A DNA stretch of 48,664 nt, taken from the IMG/VR virus record IMGVR_UViG_3300029686_000225; one strand, given 5' to 3'. Below are positions 10,531-26,224 of the stretch, one piece after another (positions within the stretch are counted from its first letter, which is position 1; every line of letters starts with the position of its first letter). Source of the stretch: a virus. Its lineage: Duplodnaviria > Heunggongvirae > Uroviricota > Caudoviricetes. Below the pieces are notes generated by a model. That model did no database searches and was not told the DNA's origin. It was given only the letters and a program-made list of their open reading frames with translations. The position numbers and the translations under genes were made by a program.

Positions 10531-11256
10531 TTAAAGCGAGCGGATACCAACACTGATCAGGTGTTCAGACAGATCCGGCTCCGGTTCACCGCCATTGACC
10601 AGCATCCGGCTCATTGCTGTAAACATCGCAACAGGGCCGTCGATTTTGGCTTCAGGCGTGGATTTATTCGGGAAGATATTGTCGTTTTTGTCCGGTTTTA
10701 CCGTAACGTTAGACATCATCCAGTTCATGACCGGGTGATTACTGTGATGGAAACGTCCGGCATAGACCAGTGATTCCGTTTCCTTCATGGCCTCTGACAG
10801 ATTGCGGACCGTCTGCGGAACTTCCACCAGCGGTATACCTTCTTCAGCCAGCGCCAGACTGAACTGCATTGCACTCCACGGGTCAAATCCCAGTTCCCTG
10901 AGGTTTTCACCACCAATCCATTCCAGTAAGTCACTTTTTATCTGAGCATGATCGATAACATCACCATCCGTCAGGATGAGCTTATCCATCTCCGCCCATT
11001 TCCGGTAAAGTTCTGCCTGCTGCCGCGAGCACCGCTCCAGCCGTCCTTCCGGGAGCCAGAATTTAAAATCAGCATGAACATGTCCGTTATCGGTTCGCCA
11101 GAGTTTTGCCGCCGCACAGATATCAATCTTATGAGCAAGGTCGACGCCGACCCACATGGGATACGTTTTCAGCTCATGTCGTGGGGCAATATATTCGCAT
11201 TTCTCCCACTTAATCATGTCCATCCAGGCAGACTCTGCTGTTACCCACACATTCAT
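10531..11256 (-). CDS. terL: terminase large subunit, C-terminal nuclease part of a gene interrupted by the inserted element
   Basis: Colinear with the C-terminal 240 aa of the intact satellite TerL ([13 protein letters not shown] vs NIWCQGATPWMGN); no N-terminal ATPase domain in this ORF; upstream in frame reads LTKH then a stop. Confidence 0.85.
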
Positions 11257-11260
11257 GTGT

Positions 11261-11274
11261 TTGGTAAGAATATT
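11261..11274. repeat. left junction repeat of inserted element (att core TTGGTAAGAATATT)
   Basis: 12 of 14 identical to 26211-26224; 7-bp perfect core TTGGTAA; lies in terL codons L-T-K. Confidence 0.7.
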
Positions 11275-18049: not shown

Positions 18050-18298
18050 TTATTGTTTCACTGGATCCCGCATTCTGCGTCTTATTTTCCACAGATATTC
18101 GATCATCGCTTCCACCTGCTCACGGTTGGTTGCGAAAATTTCCCCGGTCAGTGAGCTACGCAGAAAATCATGATGATCCACAACAAACAACGCATCGGAA
18201 GAAAGCAGACGGCGATATTTTTTTGCTGTCGTGGTTTCCAGATCATCAAAACCATGAAATTTTTTATGTTGCTGGACTTCTTCAAATGTCACTGGCAT
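18050..18298 (-). CDS. hypothetical protein
   Basis: 82-aa ORF with AAGGGGG RBS; no recognisable motif. Confidence 0.5.
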   Translation of the reverse strand: MPVTFEEVQQHKKFHGFDDLETTTAKKYRRLLSSDALFVVDHHDFLRSSLTGEIFATNREQVEAMIEYLWKIRRRMRDPVKQ

Positions 18299-18831
18299 GT
18301 ATCCCCCTTTACTGCCCGGCGCTGGCGCTTGTGCTTCTCATTCAGCGCCATCAGCCGCGTTTCTGCCTCCTGCTGTTCCTGTGGTGTCACCTCGCCGCAC
18401 GGCTGGCCTTTCAGGTCGTAACGTGCACCACCAGCCATTAAGGCGCGGTAATAGCGCGGAGACTGCGCATAGGATGCCAGCGTCGCACGTAATGCCCCCG
18501 GCCCGAATGTCAGCCCCCTGGCGGCGATATCCTGCATCAGGTCGTCGCATATCCCCACCTTAAGCGGCTTCGGTGCTTCCCGGCTGAATAAGTCAGGCCA
18601 CATCTCTGTGAGGCGGTTAACGCGCCTGCGGTTTTTGCGCTGGCGTTTGGTCATATGCCGCCACGGTGTCGCCTCTGTGGGCTTCTGTTTGCGGCTCTGC
18701 TGTGCGTTCTGATTGCCGGGCATCACTTTATGCGCCGATGTGGCTTTATCCTGCTGCTGTGCCGTCTGCGTTGTTTTCTGCGGCGTGCCGTAAATGCCTT
18801 TCGGTTTTCGGTTAATGGTCAGCGTTGTCAT
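18289..18831 (-). CDS. ProQ/FinO-family RNA-binding protein
   Basis: C-terminal region PLKVGICDDLMQD...LRATLASYAQSPRYYRALMAGGARYDLKGQPCGEV resembles the ProQ/FinO domain; basic N-terminus. Confidence 0.65.
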   Translation of the reverse strand: MTTLTINRKPKGIYGTPQKTTQTAQQQDKATSAHKVMPGNQNAQQSRKQKPTEATPWRHMTKRQRKNRRRVNRLTEMWPDLFSREAPKPLKVGICDDLMQDIAARGLTFGPGALRATLASYAQSPRYYRALMAGGARYDLKGQPCGEVTPQEQQEAETRLMALNEKHKRQRRAVKGDTCQ

Positions 18832-19503: not shown

Positions 19504-21627
19504 TTAATCTTCTGCCTCAGGCTGGAACATCAGCACGTAAAAAACATGCTGCTTCCCCCCAATTTTGCCGAGCGCCTTTTTCTTGTAACGGCGATCGTTA
19601 CCCGCTTCCAGCATTCCGGCAGCACTCAACGCGCGGGCAAAGTGAGACGGATTAAATCCCTGTGCTATCTCACCCTCAAATACATGCGGGAACGTGTAAA
19701 AACGGAACTCGTCATCTTCGTTTCTGATACACCCCTTTCTGTATCCGGCAAGCTCTTTAATCGGTAAATCACGCTCGTCGGTGTTGGGCCACGGAAGGTA
19801 TCTGCTGAATCCGAACGACGCTAAAAAAGCCTCTGCCTGTTCAACCATCTGTTTAAACTCCCTGTTACCCGTGCCGAACTCCTTCACCCAGGCATTAAAA
19901 TTATGCTGAATGGCATCGCGGCACGCCTGAACATCCCAACCAGTAATATGGACGGAAAGCACCAGCGCCGACTCCAGCATGGCGAATCGTTCCCCCACAC
20001 GGTGAACCTGTTCGCCGTAACTCTCCGGTATCAGGTTGCGCCACCGTTCACGGCATGCCCTTACCGTATCCTTTGCCTCCTGCTGGTGGTCTGCCAGCCA
20101 TTTAACCCATTCACGCCCCGCCGCCCCGTGATTTTCTGTCCAGGCATCCTTTAACGCGTCTGCGTGTGCCTTTCCGGTGCTGTATTCGTGAAACTGCGTG
20201 GCTTTTTCCATTGGCACGTTAAGCAGGCGGACAAGCTGCCCCGCCTTGACTTTTATCCCCTCCGTTTTGAGGAATGTCTCAACGTCCATTTCTCCGGTGC
20301 TGATTGCCACCGTGCGCCAGTGTTTGATCTCCCTGTTGCCGCCGTCCTTCGCCCCCTGTAATTTCCCCGAACCGTTAAACAGCGTATAAGCCGACGTGGA
20401 CACTTCCCGCGCGTTTCCGGCCTGGCCTATTTCATCCAGGGGTAAAAGCCCGTCATTGTGTGCCTCTGCTTCGTTGGCGATACCTAACGCTGTGCCGTAC
20501 CAGGTCAGCCGCTGCGCGTCCGGCTCTCCCCATAAACTTGATGCGATGTTCTGCGTTGTGGTCTTACCTGCCGATGACTGTTCGAAAAGATGTACCCCGA
20601 AGCCGTCAGCACCCACCAGCCCGATTAATGGTGCGGATAGCGATACCGCCACACCCAGCATCATGGACGGATTACCACCAGCCAGTCGCGCCACACTGTC
20701 GCGCCAGCCCTCCGCCGTTCCTGCCACGGAATAACCATTAACGGCAGCCGTTTTTCCGGTAAACAGGACTGGCTTTTCGCAATCACCAATGACCGAACCG
20801 TCCGGCATGATGTACGCGCCAAAATGCCAGCCCGTTGTTGTGCTTAACTGCCATTCCTCATGGTTTCCGCTTAACTGCATCCAGTCAGCCAGGATAGCCC
20901 TGTATTTACCGTTGGTTGTCACGTTCAGTCCGTGGTCTTTCAGCAGCCGCCAGCCGTCACGGTCGCCAATGCCACCGCACGGAACCGCCATCGTGATGAC
21001 TTCATGGTTTGCTGGCTTTTTCCAGCGCATCACGCGGTAATGCTCTTTGCCGATTGTCCCCGTTCCCAGTAGCTCAAGCGGGGAGCATAACCACGTTTCA
21101 GGCCGGATAATTTCGCCTGACTGCTTATCCACTTTTGGCGTTACCCAGAAAACACCATCGGCGCGGCTTTCAACGCGGGGCTTTAATTCATCATCACCCG
21201 GGCTTTCTGTGATTTTTTTCTTTAAGGGCAACACCAGACTTTCCCCGCGCTCGTATTCGTCTTTGAGGCGAGGCAACTGGTCGGATAAATCCGCCGGGCT
21301 GGTGTCAGTTATCCCCGCGTATTCGTATACGGTCTTCACGCCAGCCACAGCCAGCAACGTGACGATCTGTGTGAGGCTACGTTCAGTGATGTGCCCTGCG
21401 CGGTAAATACGCACACACTGACGGCTATCATCAATAATTTGATAACCGGTAATATCTTTCAGGTGTTCATCTGACAGAACGACAGGCGGCACATTGTCGG
21501 CGGCAATATGCTTACCTGCCCATTCCTGCCACTCTTTCGCATGGCTCCACGCATCACTACCCGCAAAGATGATAACCTCCGTCATTTTGTCGGCTGGCTG
21601 GTGCTTTAAGTTTGGTGCGCGCTTCAT
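19504..21627 (-). CDS. replication initiator, putative primase/helicase
   Basis: 707 aa with Walker A-like SSAGKTT; sits next to the iteron cluster as PICI/P4 replication genes do. Confidence 0.7.
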   Translation of the reverse strand: MKRAPNLKHQPADKMTEVIIFAGSDAWSHAKEWQEWAGKHIAADNVPPVVLSDEHLKDITGYQIIDDSRQCVRIYRAGHITERSLTQIVTLLAVAGVKTVYEYAGITDTSPADLSDQLPRLKDEYERGESLVLPLKKKITESPGDDELKPRVESRADGVFWVTPKVDKQSGEIIRPETWLCSPLELLGTGTIGKEHYRVMRWKKPANHEVITMAVPCGGIGDRDGWRLLKDHGLNVTTNGKYRAILADWMQLSGNHEEWQLSTTTGWHFGAYIMPDGSVIGDCEKPVLFTGKTAAVNGYSVAGTAEGWRDSVARLAGGNPSMMLGVAVSLSAPLIGLVGADGFGVHLFEQSSAGKTTTQNIASSLWGEPDAQRLTWYGTALGIANEAEAHNDGLLPLDEIGQAGNAREVSTSAYTLFNGSGKLQGAKDGGNREIKHWRTVAISTGEMDVETFLKTEGIKVKAGQLVRLLNVPMEKATQFHEYSTGKAHADALKDAWTENHGAAGREWVKWLADHQQEAKDTVRACRERWRNLIPESYGEQVHRVGERFAMLESALVLSVHITGWDVQACRDAIQHNFNAWVKEFGTGNREFKQMVEQAEAFLASFGFSRYLPWPNTDERDLPIKELAGYRKGCIRNEDDEFRFYTFPHVFEGEIAQGFNPSHFARALSAAGMLEAGNDRRYKKKALGKIGGKQHVFYVLMFQPEAED

Positions 21628-21938
21628 TTTGCCTTTCCCCGTTCACGAATAATTTCACGTACTGCCTTAATGCGTTCCATTCCTGTAACGCGCATGATTC
21701 TGTCGATGTCGCTTAATTCTGCTGGTGGTGCTTTGCTTACCAGGGTGAACTCCCTGTCAAAGCGCATATGTGACGACACGCAGGGATGCGCATAACCTTC
21801 GCGGATATAGGTCACACGAAAATCATCGACGGTTTTAATCGTTATCGTGCTGCCGTATTTATCCCGGAAAATATCACCGGGGCGGATTTCAGGCCGAGCG
21901 TGACCGCTGGCAGTAAAGCCAGAATTTTTCTTTTTCAT
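21624..21938 (-). CDS. hypothetical protein
   Basis: 104-aa ORF; stop overlaps primase start (ATGA). Confidence 0.5.
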   Translation of the reverse strand: MKKKNSGFTASGHARPEIRPGDIFRDKYGSTITIKTVDDFRVTYIREGYAHPCVSSHMRFDREFTLVSKAPPAELSDIDRIMRVTGMERIKAVREIIRERGKAK

Positions 21939-21944
21939 GTTTTT

Positions 21945-22163
21945 TTACTCCAGAGGCAGCTTTTTAGCGGCGAGCTCAATATCAGATGTCAGAGAAACCT
22001 GTGTATTTGCCAGGTCTAACAACAAAGAAATAAGAATTTCTTCTCTGCTATCGGATTTATCGGTGCTAAGGCTGTTCATCCACATATTGACGACTTCCCT
22101 GATTTTTTTCGCAGAGTGCAGGGCTTCAAATGCCAGGTCTTCAATATCATGTTTATTTCGCAT
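21945..22163 (-). CDS. hypothetical protein
   Basis: ATG at 22163 with G-rich RBS; 72 aa. Confidence 0.4.
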   Translation of the reverse strand: MRNKHDIEDLAFEALHSAKKIREVVNMWMNSLSTDKSDSREEILISLLLDLANTQVSLTSDIELAAKKLPLE

Positions 22164-22398
22164 AATCGCCCCCGCCATTTTCACAATCAGCAATCAGGAT
22201 GGCTTTAGCCTCATTCAGCGCCATATCAGCGGTAAGCTGTGCGTAAGCCAGCGAATGCGGGATTATCGCCCCTGTATATTCCGTCTCTCTGGTAATGTGT
22301 TTTTCTGCGGTTGCTGCCGTGCATGAAATATCAATCAGCGCGTGCATTAGCGTTTTGATGGCTTCGGCGGCTGCGTCCGGACGGGTGTTATTGCACAT
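22153..22398 (-). CDS. hypothetical protein
   Basis: 81-aa ORF with AGGGGG RBS. Confidence 0.45.
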   Translation of the reverse strand: MCNNTRPDAAAEAIKTLMHALIDISCTAATAEKHITRETEYTGAIIPHSLAYAQLTADMALNEAKAILIADCENGGGDYAK

Positions 22399-22594
22399 GG
22401 CGTACCCCCTGACGAATACGGGCGGCGAATACCATCACGCAACCAGCCGGGGATTGCTGGCGTGCTTCCTGTTCGCTGGTGGCCTCAATGGTAATCACGC
22501 GCGGTTGTGCCGTGCTCAGGGCGATAAAACGCCAGATGTATTTATTCAGGTTGTGCGAGTCCCGCCCTTGCGGGTGTGTGGTATGATTTCTCAT
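22388..22594 (-). CDS. hypothetical small protein (first gene of leftward operon)
   Basis: 68 aa; ATG at 22594 with GAGGT RBS; only the 3' 207 nt of the 363-aa track ORF is taken as real. Confidence 0.4.
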   Translation of the reverse strand: MRNHTTHPQGRDSHNLNKYIWRFIALSTAQPRVITIEATSEQEARQQSPAGCVMVFAARIRQGVRHVQ

Positions 22595-22691
22595 AGCTAC
22601 CTCGATACTTCTGCTATCGTTGGTGGTTAGAAGCCCTGCGAGTGGTAACGACACTTGCGGGGCTTTGCATTTATGCGCCTTGATAATTTTA

Positions 22692-22727
22692 AGGTGTGGC
22701 CCACTATATGTTTTAGGTGTGGCCCAC
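22692..22727. promoter_or_regulatory. two 13-bp direct repeats AGGTGTGGCCCAC in a divergent promoter region (candidate operator)
   Basis: Repeats at 22692-22704 and 22715-22727, 23 bp apart, followed by TATACT and the RHH gene RBS. Confidence 0.45.
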
Positions 22728-22793
22728 GTCAAGAGTTTTATTTGTGCTTTTTCTGTGTATACTGTCCCCCACCAATCCACCAGAGGAATAGAA

Positions 22794-22973
22794 ATGGCAA
22801 CGGGTACAACAAACGCAAAATCACAAGCTCTAAAGGCTCGTGTACCACACGAAATAGTAAACGCCATGGAATCAGTGAAAGAATCAGGCGAAAGCACATC
22901 ACAATTCATCATTACGTCAATGCAAGGCGAGATCAAACGCCGCCAGCGTCGCAAGGCCAAAGAGCAGGAGTAA
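22794..22973 (+). CDS. putative ribbon-helix-helix-type regulator
   Basis: 59-aa ORF with AGGA RBS; only plus-strand gene in the element. Confidence 0.45.
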   Translation: MATGTTNAKSQALKARVPHEIVNAMESVKESGESTSQFIITSMQGEIKRRQRRKAKEQE

Positions 22974-23310
22974 CCATCACCAGCGCCGTGGTGTGAGGAA
23001 TCACGGCGGCAACCATAGGAGTAAAAGATGCCAAAACTTAAAAATTGTGCACTCTGTGCGATTGTTCTAATTGTCGCCGCCTTTATCTTAAAATCATGCT
23101 TCGAGAAAAAGAATCTTTGCGGAAGCAATGAAGGCGATATATTACGGCGTGCTTGCGATATAGAGTTGAAAAAAAGTTGAGCATAACCTAACCGCGACAA
23201 TGCCGTAGTTCCTGTAATTACAGAACAGCTCAGGATTTGCCCACCAGCCGCAAATGTGGCATTGTTGGTTATGCTCATGCGTTGGGGATAACGTGTAGCT
23301 TGTGTCAAGG

Positions 23311-23339
23311 GGCCACCGTAGCGGGTGGCCTTTGTTTTG
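23311..23339 (+). terminator. intrinsic terminator (plus strand)
   Basis: GGCCACC-GTAGCG-GGTGGCC then TTTGTTTTG. Confidence 0.5.
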
Positions 23340-23376
23340 CCTGTTATCCTGCAACTATGGTCATTTCGACCACGGT

Positions 23377-23465
23377 TGATATAATCCCCCCGCACAGATT
23401 CATTTTTTGCGCAGTAGGTTAATTGTTCGCAAGGGCGCTCCGGTAACGGGGCGCTTTTTGTTTTT
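23377..23465 (+). ncRNA. candidate small RNA (extended -10 promoter to intrinsic terminator)
   Basis: TGATATAAT at 23377-23385; hairpin GCGCTCCGGTAACGGGGCGC plus T-run at 23435-23465; no ORF. Confidence 0.3.
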
Positions 23466-23623
23466 ACCCACCAGCACAATAAAAATCTTCATTTTCCATT
23501 TTTGTAAAATTTCATGCTTTCCGGACGACTGGTAATATGTCATTTTTTAGCAGAAGATTTTGCCTTGCTGGTGGGTAGCTTCCCGGTCAACACGATGTAC
23601 CGTATAATCAACACCGCGTGTGG

Positions 23624-24616: not shown

Positions 24617-24838
24617 TCAGGGTTTCCATTCACCCTTTACCCATTCCAGCACCTCAGATAAGCGCCAGACTTTTGTTTGTGGGCCAATACATATTTTCCG
24701 TGGAAATTTTCCTTCCTTTTCAAGTAATGCTCTGTGTCTCCTGCCAAGAGCTGTTAACCATGCACATTCATCTTCCTTAATCATCCTGTCGATTGTTTTA
24801 TCATTTTCAAGTTCTTCACGCGTAACTATTTCAATCAT
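24617..24838 (-). CDS. alpA: AlpA-family transcriptional regulator (second copy)
   Basis: HTH_17-like segment AWLTALGRRHRALLEKEGKFPRKICIGPQTKVWRLSEV; GGTGA RBS. Confidence 0.7.
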   Translation of the reverse strand: MIEIVTREELENDKTIDRMIKEDECAWLTALGRRHRALLEKEGKFPRKICIGPQTKVWRLSEVLEWVKGEWKP

Positions 24839-26039
24839 TACCGTCACCACTAATTAGCTTATTCAGATAGTCGTACCACCAGTTCATAGCTTCTTTTTTT
24901 CTGTCCATATACTGACTTCTGTTATAAACCCCGGCAACACCGCCTAATGTGTGCCCAAGCAACTGTTCAACCACATTATGTTCAAAACCATGATCACTTA
25001 GCTTTGTGGCAAACACTCTTCGCATATCATGCGCCGTCCATTTTTCCGAGTGTTTCATCCTTTTCCATGTCTTACCGATAGTTACGCTTGCCGTACACTG
25101 ACGCATATCAAACCCAATCACATTTTCTTTGTTACCTGTTATTTTTTTTAACGTAACTAACCAGTTAAACATGCCATCAGGAATCGGTCTGATTATTTCC
25201 CTGCCATTTTTGCTATGATCAGCGGGAACGCGCCATAATTTCTTATCAAAATCCCACTCTACCCAGGACGACAGTAATACTTCTGACAGTCGACAACCAA
25301 AAACTACCAGGAAACGTAAAATAATTCGGTTTTCATATGATAATTCGTGATTGTCATAATCAGTATTAATACTTCGCCATAAATCTCTGATTTCATCATC
25401 TGTTAAAACCCTGCTTCTTCGCGCAGACTTTTTTCCCACATCACAGACCTCAAGATCATCAATTTCATGACTAATCGCGTATTTTCTTACCCTACAAAAT
25501 TTAAGCGCCTGTTTTGATATACGCAACAAAGCTCCGGCCTGTACAGGTGCTACTTTTTTTATTTTGTCAAAACACTTGATCCACATAGATATAGAGCAAT
25601 CACTAAGTGGTACATGACCAATCACCGGATAAATATGTTTACCAAAGCACTGCCTGATATGTTCTGCTCCCCTACGCTTATCCATTGCATAATTATCAAG
25701 CCAGTATTCAAGTGCCTCACGAACGGTAACAGGTTGCAAGGTGGCTTCCCGTTCAATTTTTATCTGAATCCGTGGATCTCTGCCCTCCGCAAGCCAGGTT
25801 CGACACTGATCGCGCATCTCTCTCGCTGATTTGAGACTCAGATCAGGATATTTTCCAAGTGTCAGCCAGATGGGCGCGGTTCCCCTTCCCGCCAGTCTGT
25901 AAAAGAAAACAAAACTAACACATCCGTATTTACTGACCCGTACCGAAAGCCCGTTACCATCAGCGATGGTTTCCTGCCTCTCACTCCTGCGCCCAAGCAG
26001 GGAACGAAGTTTTTTATCGCTCAGTTTGTTTAGCGCCAT
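24831..26039 (-). CDS. int: tyrosine integrase (P4/PICI-type) of the inserted element
   Basis: About 402 aa; C-terminal catalytic region with R...H..R and HDMRR...LLGH...Y; adjacent to the element junction. Confidence 0.85.
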   Translation of the reverse strand: MALNKLSDKKLRSLLGRRSERQETIADGNGLSVRVSKYGCVSFVFFYRLAGRGTAPIWLTLGKYPDLSLKSAREMRDQCRTWLAEGRDPRIQIKIEREATLQPVTVREALEYWLDNYAMDKRRGAEHIRQCFGKHIYPVIGHVPLSDCSISMWIKCFDKIKKVAPVQAGALLRISKQALKFCRVRKYAISHEIDDLEVCDVGKKSARRSRVLTDDEIRDLWRSINTDYDNHELSYENRIILRFLVVFGCRLSEVLLSSWVEWDFDKKLWRVPADHSKNGREIIRPIPDGMFNWLVTLKKITGNKENVIGFDMRQCTASVTIGKTWKRMKHSEKWTAHDMRRVFATKLSDHGFEHNVVEQLLGHTLGGVAGVYNRSQYMDRKKEAMNWWYDYLNKLISGDGND

Positions 26040-26210
26040 GTGATTTATAACCCGTTTTTGCAATACACAGTGCAATACACAAATGATGAAAACAGCCAGA
26101 ACCTTCCAGAAAAAACAAAAACGACGAACAAGAAAAAATCTTTTTCTTTCATTTGGTTACTAAAAAAATCAGGACAGGTCGCACTGTTGTTACGGCGTGA
26201 TGTTACTTTC

Positions 26211-26224
26211 TTGGTAAAAAAATT
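26211..26224. repeat. right junction repeat of inserted element (TTGGTAAAAAAATT)
   Basis: Partner of 11261-11274; lies in terL codons F-T-K. Confidence 0.7.

Follow-up and report, generated by a model that had tools for sequence, protein, structure and literature searches.

Within a 48,664-nucleotide viral sequence from the IMG/VR collection (record IMGVR_UViG_3300029686_000225), referred to here in its whole length as the window, four small open reading frames (ORFs), named A to D in the order in which they would be transcribed, lie directly upstream of a gene for a DUF927 primase-helicase. The window is an Escherichia coli lambdoid prophage that carries a satellite of ∼15 kb, and the gene content of the satellite identifies it as a capsid-forming phage-inducible chromosomal island (cf-PICI), predicted to be packaged in small capsids of its own. 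An earlier note on this DNA described four consecutive small ORFs within 21624-22594 as an operon, with their own ribosome-binding sites (RBSs) and some overlaps, transcribed from a divergent regulatory region towards the replication gene. This description is borne out in each of its parts, and all four ORFs are found there on the minus strand (Table 1). The same note found no recognisable function among them, and here it has to be corrected: A is matched by the NCBIfam model phage_ICD_like, D by Pfam DUF4222, and B and C fall within PHROG families. The four genes are known and annotated, and make up an ordinary PICI cassette of the kind with which the replication operons of E. coli satellites usually start. 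The new point at this locus is an antisense RNA, predicted to cover the RBS and start codon of A.

A Shine-Dalgarno-like motif stands 4–9 nucleotides (nt) before each start (GAGG, AGGGGG, GGGGG, and GGAG for A to D, and AAGG for the primase gene). A and B overlap by 11 nt, as do B and C, a gap of 6 nt separates C from D, and D overlaps the primase gene at an ATGA. These features support a group of co-directional, translationally coupled genes that run into the primase-helicase, with a divergent promoter and operator region on their other side. The Prokaryotic Genome Annotation Pipeline (PGAP) calls the same four coding sequences in an E. coli locus that is 99.9% identical, and all four are annotated in RefSeq; for C, a mechanical ORF starting from a TTG at 22193 would be longer, at 82 amino acids (aa). 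The annotation, low ratios of non-synonymous to synonymous substitution (dN/dS), and the existence of relatives of C indicate that the four ORFs are more than chance reading frames.

The genes of the cassette

Profile searches and structure prediction had been put forward in the earlier note as ways of checking the four genes. The former gave matches above the cut-offs for A and D and PHROG matches for B and C; the latter yielded a Tudor/KOW-like barrel for D and, for B, a two-helix hairpin that has no significant fold match in the Protein Data Bank (PDB).

Judged by its sequence, ORF A is an Icd-like protein. Residues 19–62 match NF033153 with an E-value of 1.5e-19 and a score of 69.8 bits, for which the curated NCBIfam cut-off is 25 bits, and the protein matches phrog_6196 at E 1e-46. 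Similarity to the Icd protein of phage P1 extends over 49 aa (33% identity, E 1e-6) and includes the motifs IWRF and EAR..P.G, which are common to both. Arrest of cell division by P1 Icd is the known function of this family. A tblastn search of the phage collection with A did not recover P1 at E 1e-3; among 50,697 phage genomes its one match was a 16.5-kb ‘phage’ record, which may itself be a satellite. A PDB sequence search with A gave no match. Pairwise dN/dS values for A range from 0.06 to 0.29. The Icd-like ORF occurs in several variants among E. coli satellites (L027:3594-3944, L030:3611-3928, and L022:9782-10375): in some it has an N-terminal extension and a length of 116 aa, and in others an ‘ash family’ or second Icd-like pseudogene comes before it.

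ORF D encodes a DUF4222 protein in the RgdR family, an assignment made from residues 16–67, which match PF13973 at 67.2 bits (gathering score 27), and from residues 1–71, which are 54% identical to a 99-aa DUF4222 protein encoded by the O157:H7 island between roxA and phoQ. The island protein has an RGD tripeptide at residues 20–22 and fits what has been published on RgdR (ECs1581), which regulates type III secretion and motility pleiotropically (PMC3378721) and which all analysed E. coli PICIs are reported to encode (PMC6092414). D sits directly upstream of the replicase gene, as RgdR does in PICIs. The RGD tripeptide at these residues of RgdR is important for activation of the enterocyte effacement locus (LEE) (PMC3378721), whereas D has P20-G21-D22, and a LEE-related activity can therefore not be assumed for it; RPGD is the majority form in the DUF4222 family alignment. 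Pairwise dN/dS values for D lie between 0.11 and 0.28, and a PDB sequence search gave only two matches, at E about 0.3. The predicted Tudor/KOW-like fold suggests contact with RNA polymerase, and since fold-match scores of this size are common among small barrels it is to be read as a lead and not as a result. It would nonetheless be the first structural lead on how RgdR-type regulators might act, and the assignment of D ties the cassette to RgdR, a regulator of virulence genes in enterohaemorrhagic E. coli.

ORF B matches phrog_5146 (E 2e-27) and phrog_2512 (E 1.3e-25), and its homologues form 175 clusters, nearly all from E. coli and every one named hypothetical. With the N-terminal half of an O157 island protein of 154 aa it shares 76% identity. 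In O157:H7 strain SS17 (L022:8772-9236) a B homologue is fused in frame with the next small gene, of the phrog_24341 type, to give 154 aa, and the RepA helicase gene beside it is frameshifted. Values of dN/dS for B are 0.12–0.31, save for one pair with only four differences (0.92), and 0.24–0.26 where dS reaches 0.5–0.67. The predicted hairpin comes from an AlphaFold model (pLDDT 83) with helices at residues 9–37 and 39–73; the Foldseek matches were generic helical hairpins only (ATP synthase c subunits, for example), all with E-values above 0.3, and were judged uninformative. A tblastn search with B found no match in the 50,697 phage genomes and, given the single match for A, neither A nor B is taken to be a phage gene. 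For B and C alike, there was no match in PDB sequence searches or in Pfam at E up to 10, and BLASTP shows no similarity between the two, so that they are not paralogues of each other.

ORF C is classed by sequence as a rare, divergent helical protein of the phrog_2196 type. Its own matches to phrog_2196 (E 1.8e-4) and phrog_5796 are weak, and its 77-aa positional counterpart in the O157 and Nissle 1917 islands matches phrog_2196 at E 8e-42. An exhaustive HMMER search found only nine relatives, among them proteins at 50% and 37% identity; in all, C has relatives of 72–75 aa at 85%, 50%, and 37% identity. Among the copies found C is nearly invariant, and selection on it is for this reason not measurable. 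This near-identity raises the question of whether C, and possibly B, is a functional gene here or a filler segment that has spread recently or is decaying. The DNA of C is nearly identical in every copy, even beside a B that has diverged to 83% amino-acid identity; C is truncated in one related locus (L025) and is carried by only about 1% of E. coli genomes. We consider the filler explanation decidedly unlikely, because the frame of C is intact, with a Shine-Dalgarno motif and overlap coupling, because full-length relatives of the same size exist at the identities given above, because C is linked to the PHROG family that holds this position in other PICIs, and because B is under purifying selection.

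The wider distribution of the cassette was assessed in several collections. In 99 satellite-sized IMG/VR contigs that were anchored on the leader preceding A, A is present in 98, D in 85, a YlcI/YnfO-family gene in 81, B in 50, and C in 11, and the genes invariably follow the order YlcI > A > (B) > (C) > D > replicase. This order also holds in loci of other genera; among 20 such loci anchored on the primase, 15 have A upstream, 13 have D, one has B, and none has C. Of 5426 complete E. coli genomes, about 950 carry B and about 70 carry C. In E. coli the A-B-C-D cassette precedes three types of replicase (DUF927, ‘DNA primase family’, and RepA helicase). Across Enterobacterales, A and D frame the slot in most related satellites, with B in about half and C in about a tenth of them. 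From these locus, contig, and genome counts, and from the estimates of selection, it follows that A and D are a conserved frame and that the middle genes are variable. Absence of the ORFs from related elements would have spoken against the operon as the earlier note described it; A, B, and D are conserved and, as judged from dN/dS, under purifying selection, and conservation of C is weak.

The earlier note placed functions directed at the helper in this position, and the four genes might derepress a helper prophage, as P4 epsilon does, or interfere with helper reproduction. The position does match that of P4 epsilon, a gene found upstream of alpha in the left operon of P4, and B and C are small, acidic, and helical, a common form among protein inhibitors. 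Such a role is nevertheless improbable. Profile searches and PADLOC gave no sequence similarity to known derepressors or interference proteins, P4 epsilon included, phage genomes hold almost no homologues of the cassette genes, and RgdR acts on host transcription. The same cassette is found in classical PICIs and in cf-PICIs, which differ in packaging, and before three replicase types, which argues against helper-specific functions for A and D.

The presence of an Icd-like protein also brings to mind an anti-phage module acting by abortive infection or superinfection exclusion, in which a phage protein would trigger the locus and the Icd-like protein would stop or kill the cell. A six-gene locus of ECOR61, which includes an Icd-like protein and a primase, responds to a phage gene by causing cell death, with the Icd-like protein as the probable cell-death effector (bioRxiv 10.1101/2023.04.06.535777). 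By analogy, this case fits a toxic role of Icd-like proteins in such operons; there, a phage accessory gene (orf24) set off cell death through a mobile-element locus, and variability such as that of B and C is usual for defence and counter-defence cargo. That defence is the main role of the cassette seems unlikely to us, since PADLOC gave no match for the four proteins or their neighbours (ten proteins), the ECOR61 protein has a long N-terminal extension which A lacks, and A and D are nearly universal and their coupling to the replicase is tight, so that a core role in the life cycle fits better than cargo.

A predicted antisense RNA and the divergent regulatory region

The 100-nt leader in front of A is better conserved across genera than the proteins around it. 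When 85 unique leader variants were gathered and both strands folded, the mean minimum free energy was −36.2 kcal/mol on the plus (antisense) strand and −23.1 kcal/mol on the mRNA strand, the plus strand being the more stable in 84 of the 85. The plus strand forms two stem-loops, and a T-rich tail follows the second hairpin on this strand only. Covariation was measured on a 40-sequence alignment, in which standard pairs make up 96.9% of the two-stem-loop structure, compared with 31–49% when the partners are slid, and the covariation score is 0.173 compared with 0.109 in shuffles, none of 500 shuffles scoring as high. Five pairs change on both sides. G·U pairs fill 168 cells on the plus strand, against a single cell in which the mRNA strand would have one. 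On that strand only 80.2% of cells pair, and the lower stem of stem-loop I is unable to form. As is expected of antisense RNAs of the FinP/sar type, the conserved secondary structure is specific to the antisense strand.

With a covariance model, the plus strand scores 83.4 bits (at 22592-22680) and the opposite strand 13.3 bits. The model also detects the RNA in 17 of the 20 loci from other genera that were anchored on the primase, each time on the strand that does not encode the primase. By BLAST, the leader is present in 1405 of the 5426 complete E. coli genomes (about 26%), in which it is never annotated as an RNA. No Rfam family covers the leader. The C4/isrK models gave no match anywhere in the window at the gathering score, and none between 21400 and 24400 at E up to 1; the weak matches nearby were terminator look-alikes only. 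No description of the leader RNA was found in the published literature, and the RNA appears to be undescribed. A possible second copy at 29688-29762 on the plus strand (30.6 bits) matches the terminator half of the model only and was set aside as a generic prophage terminator; the site is a strong bidirectional terminator hairpin in the lysis region of the prophage.

The putative promoter of the antisense RNA lies within the coding sequence of A. Its −10 hexamer TATGAT (22582-22587) is preceded by a TG at 22579-22580; in 46 of 58 unique variants, exactly 4 nt separate the hexamer from the complement of the start codon, and the extended TG is present in 37 of the 58 (64%). Codon 4 of A varies between H, Y, and N, and its third base, which forms the critical A2 of the −10 box, is kept.

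The leader structure could instead work in the mRNA itself, as a 5′ stabiliser or a translational operator, or could be only a terminator that insulates the divergent promoters, so that there would be no regulatory antisense RNA. The upper stems can indeed also form on the mRNA strand, with about 80% of pair cells standard, and the putative antisense promoter has no −35 element. These explanations appear doubtful in view of the strand bias of the G·U cells, the lower stem of stem-loop I, whose invariant G·U and U·G pairs are impossible in mRNA, the greater stability of the plus strand in all but one variant, the T-rich tail, and the −10 hexamer, whose distance stays fixed while the codons that overlap it change amino acid. 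An antisense RNA that probably silences the operon would account for these features of the leader.

Transcription of the operon itself would start from a predicted sigma-70 promoter, the position of which is kept in related loci. The two direct repeats around its −10 box, a putative operator, are likewise constant in position, and their sequence differs among loci (L006–L030) that carry different YlcI/YnfO variants. Changes of the operator-like repeats alongside the YlcI/YnfO variants resemble the immunity specificities of phage repressors. Repeats that are fixed in position and variable in sequence suggest a cognate repressor, and the protein of the divergent YlcI/YnfO-family gene is the probable candidate. 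In a Pfam search of this protein at E up to 10 the one match was Lyase_1, which was judged to be due to chance.

Several known systems resemble parts of this arrangement. The early or replication regions of E. coli PICIs, such as EcCICFT073, CP-933C (O-island 51 of O157:H7), and the cf-PICI EcCIEDL933, have an Icd-like gene, small hypothetical genes, DUF4222/RgdR, replicase, and SSB genes in the same order. The element described here differs in that it has only two middle genes, of which C is a rare divergent variant, in the C-terminal half of D and its PGD in place of RGD, and in its DUF927-type replicase. The immI operon of P1 (c4 RNA, icd, and ant) also has an Icd-family ORF as its first translated cistron, with an RBS targeted by a small antisense RNA and downstream genes that depend on this cistron, according to the P1 annotation. 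C4 RNA of P1 is made upstream from the same transcript and acts in trans through short a/b sites, whereas the RNA predicted here comes from the opposite strand, is fully complementary, and is matched by neither C4 nor isrK of Rfam; what follows downstream as payload is a primase here and an antirepressor in P1.

Like FinP of the F plasmid, the predicted RNA is a cis-antisense RNA of roughly 70–80 nt with two stem-loops; it lies over the RBS of an operon's first gene and has a putative terminator at its end. In both cases a FinO-domain protein is encoded on the same element. There is no sequence relationship between the RNA described here and either FinP or the sar RNA of phage P22. A dedicated pair of RNA and FinO protein was considered and rejected, as only 22 of the 99 satellites with the leader encode a ProQ/FinO protein, so that a dedicated chaperone is not required; the ProQ/FinO protein of this satellite, of 180 aa with a basic N-terminal extension, is a possible partner or chaperone, and the pairing is a candidate only. 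The CI immunity RNA of P4 and the C4/isrK-type RNAs share with the leader RNA, as proposed here, the silencing by RNA of a satellite operon leading to a primase. CI is a sense-strand RNA, processed from the leader, that causes premature termination through seqA/seqC, whereas the RNA here is on the opposite strand, unmatched by those Rfam models, and positioned at the icd RBS and not in a Bro gene; C4/isrK-type RNAs have been reported in the Bro zones of some Gram-negative PICIs (PMC10111431).

Proposed working of the replication operon

Taken together, we put a probability of roughly 70% on the reading that the four ORFs make up the promoter-proximal end of the early (replication) operon in a capsid-forming, helper-embedded E. 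coli PICI satellite, working as follows. The cassette is conserved and coupled into the primase-helicase, SSB, and ProQ/FinO genes; its gene identities, order, and coupling signals, and the strand-specific RNA structure with its promoter motif, are the observations from which we infer each functional step. In the integrated state, a repressor bound to the two direct repeats around the −10 box, probably the YlcI/YnfO protein, would hold the operon promoter down. Residual mRNA would be silenced by the cis-antisense RNA, made constitutively and pairing with the Shine-Dalgarno site and start codon of A; for this step, structure, strand, and promoter motif come from comparative analysis. By analogy with c4-icd-ant of P1 and sar-ant of P22, the block to translation of the first cistron would shut off the cistrons coupled to it downstream. 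Given this coupling, a block on A would be expected to lower B, C, D, and the primase as well.

On helper induction, transcription would outrun the antisense RNA. A would then arrest cell division, if it shares the family function represented by P1 Icd, and D may modulate transcription, as suggested by the pleiotropic regulator RgdR and by the predicted Tudor/KOW-like fold. B and C might be small protein-binding accessories, and the primase-helicase would replicate the element.

Several points weigh against this reading. The operon promoter, the antisense RNA, and its promoter are predictions from sequence, and the antisense promoter has no −35 match. The argument for YlcI/YnfO as a repressor consists of its position and the variant-specific repeats, and Pfam and PDB sequence searches gave no DNA-binding assignment for it. 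The published model for induction of Gram-negative PICIs has activation by AlpA at its centre, with neither repressor nor RNA (PMC6092414). D has PGD and not RGD, and for B and C there is no functional lead, with no measurable selection on C.

Whether Gram-negative PICIs have a global repressor was described as unclear by Fillol-Salom et al. (PMC6092414). An antisense RNA over the first RBS, next to repeats that change with the YlcI/YnfO gene, offers a concrete hypothesis for repression. If it is true, the RNA and YlcI/YnfO would supply this ‘missing repressor’, the RNA would join P4 CI and P1 C4 as a third type of RNA immunity in satellites, and the silence of these very common elements and their sharp induction would be explained. 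We lean towards a general form of the hypothesis, in which many Gram-negative PICIs, cf-PICIs, and related satellites silence the replication operon by an undescribed two-stem-loop cis-antisense RNA over the RBS of an Icd-like leader gene, together with a YlcI/YnfO repressor of variable specificity and, in some, a FinO-domain chaperone. It is open to a mutational test, as a single synonymous substitution is enough to remove the antisense promoter's −10 box. Recognition of the cassette stops the four genes being flagged as orphans; the antisense RNA matters more, and is worth following up.

The satellite and its insertion site

The satellite is bounded by 7-bp att cores about 15 kb apart, and no direct repeat of ≥12 bp marks its ends. 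Its genes lie nearly all on the minus strand, in the order integrase, two AlpA-like helix-turn-helix genes, Bro-N, the four small ORFs, DUF927 primase-helicase, SSB, ProQ/FinO-family gene, and then the morphogenesis genes for major capsid, prohead protease, portal, connector, HNH, TerS, and TerL. The 99.9% identical RefSeq locus, from E. coli strain OkiPb01701, is annotated alike. This annotation contains the genes by which cf-PICIs are defined (int, alpA, pri-rep, and their own capsid, protease, portal, connector, HNH, TerS, and TerL genes, with no tail or lysis genes and a size of about 10–15 kb), in the architecture described in bioRxiv 10.1101/2022.09.08.507074.

Table 1. Positions of the genes and predicted regulatory features in the window.
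Feature	Position	Strand	Details
ORF A	22388-22594	−	68 aa; ATG start; first cistron
ORF B	22153-22398	−	81 aa
ORF C	21945-22163	−	72 aa from the ATG used by RefSeq/PGAP
ORF D	21624-21938	−	104 aa; ATGA-coupled to the primase gene
DUF927 primase-helicase	19504-21627	−	Pfam DUF927 E 5.8e-46; phrog_1139 (DNA primase) E 2e-174; downstream gene of the same operon
Predicted cis-antisense RNA	22592-22680	+	About 80 nt; antisense to RBS and start codon of A
Stem-loop I	22596-22627	+	Complementary to Shine-Dalgarno motif and spacer of A
Stem-loop II	22630-22666	+	Predicted terminator, followed by T-rich tail
Predicted promoter of antisense RNA	22579-22587	+	Extended −10 (TGgTATGAT); inside codons 3-5 of ORF A
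Predicted sigma-70 promoter of operon	22703-22732	−	−35 TTGACG 22732-22727; −10 TATAGT 22708-22703; 10/12 matches in consensus scan
Two direct repeats, putative operator	22683-22727		AGGTGTGGCCCAC; repeat family D1; flank −10 box of operon promoter
YlcI/YnfO-family gene	22794-22973	+	Divergent; 59 aa; NCBIfam NF041551 E 5e-19
ProQ/FinO-family RNA chaperone gene	18289-18831	−	Pfam ProQ E 7e-24; NCBIfam FinO E 4.8e-19, below that model's cut-off
Integrase	24831-26075		First in satellite gene order
att cores	11261-11267 and 26211-26217		TTGGTAA on plus strand, 7 bp; bound the satellite
Prophage terL fragments	26218-27238 and 10531-11260		Halves flanking the satellite

The insertion lies within the large terminase gene (terL) of the prophage and in the same orientation, and the two halves of terL rejoin into a restored protein sequence once the satellite is left out. 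This agrees in gene, orientation, and 7-bp att core with the published configuration of helper-embedded PICIs (HE-PICIs) at site A:Terminase_1 (PMC10111431); no difference was noted, and the comparison bears on the whole element and not on the four genes. The helper-embedded position in terL is a known configuration and not new. Strains KFu019 and O177:H21 have related satellites that likewise adjoin a truncated terL.

No RefSeq-annotated gene lies in the 650 bp (22974-23623) that separate the YlcI/YnfO gene from the Bro-N gene. This gap holds a 50-aa ORF with a hydrophobic N-terminus (23028-23180, plus strand), terminator-like hairpins on the plus strand at 23308-23333 and 23431-23458, and, at 23358-23385, what looks like a promoter with an extended −10 box; in the related locus L025, an annotated 65-aa gene follows the YlcI/YnfO gene. 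In the prophage, ARAGORN finds two adjacent tRNA genes on the minus strand at 31842-31995, tRNA-Lys (UUU) and tRNA-Met (CAU). Since four tRNAs (Gly, Thr, Lys, and Ile) are annotated at this place in the near-identical RefSeq locus, the CAU tRNA is probably a lysidine-modified tRNA-Ile.

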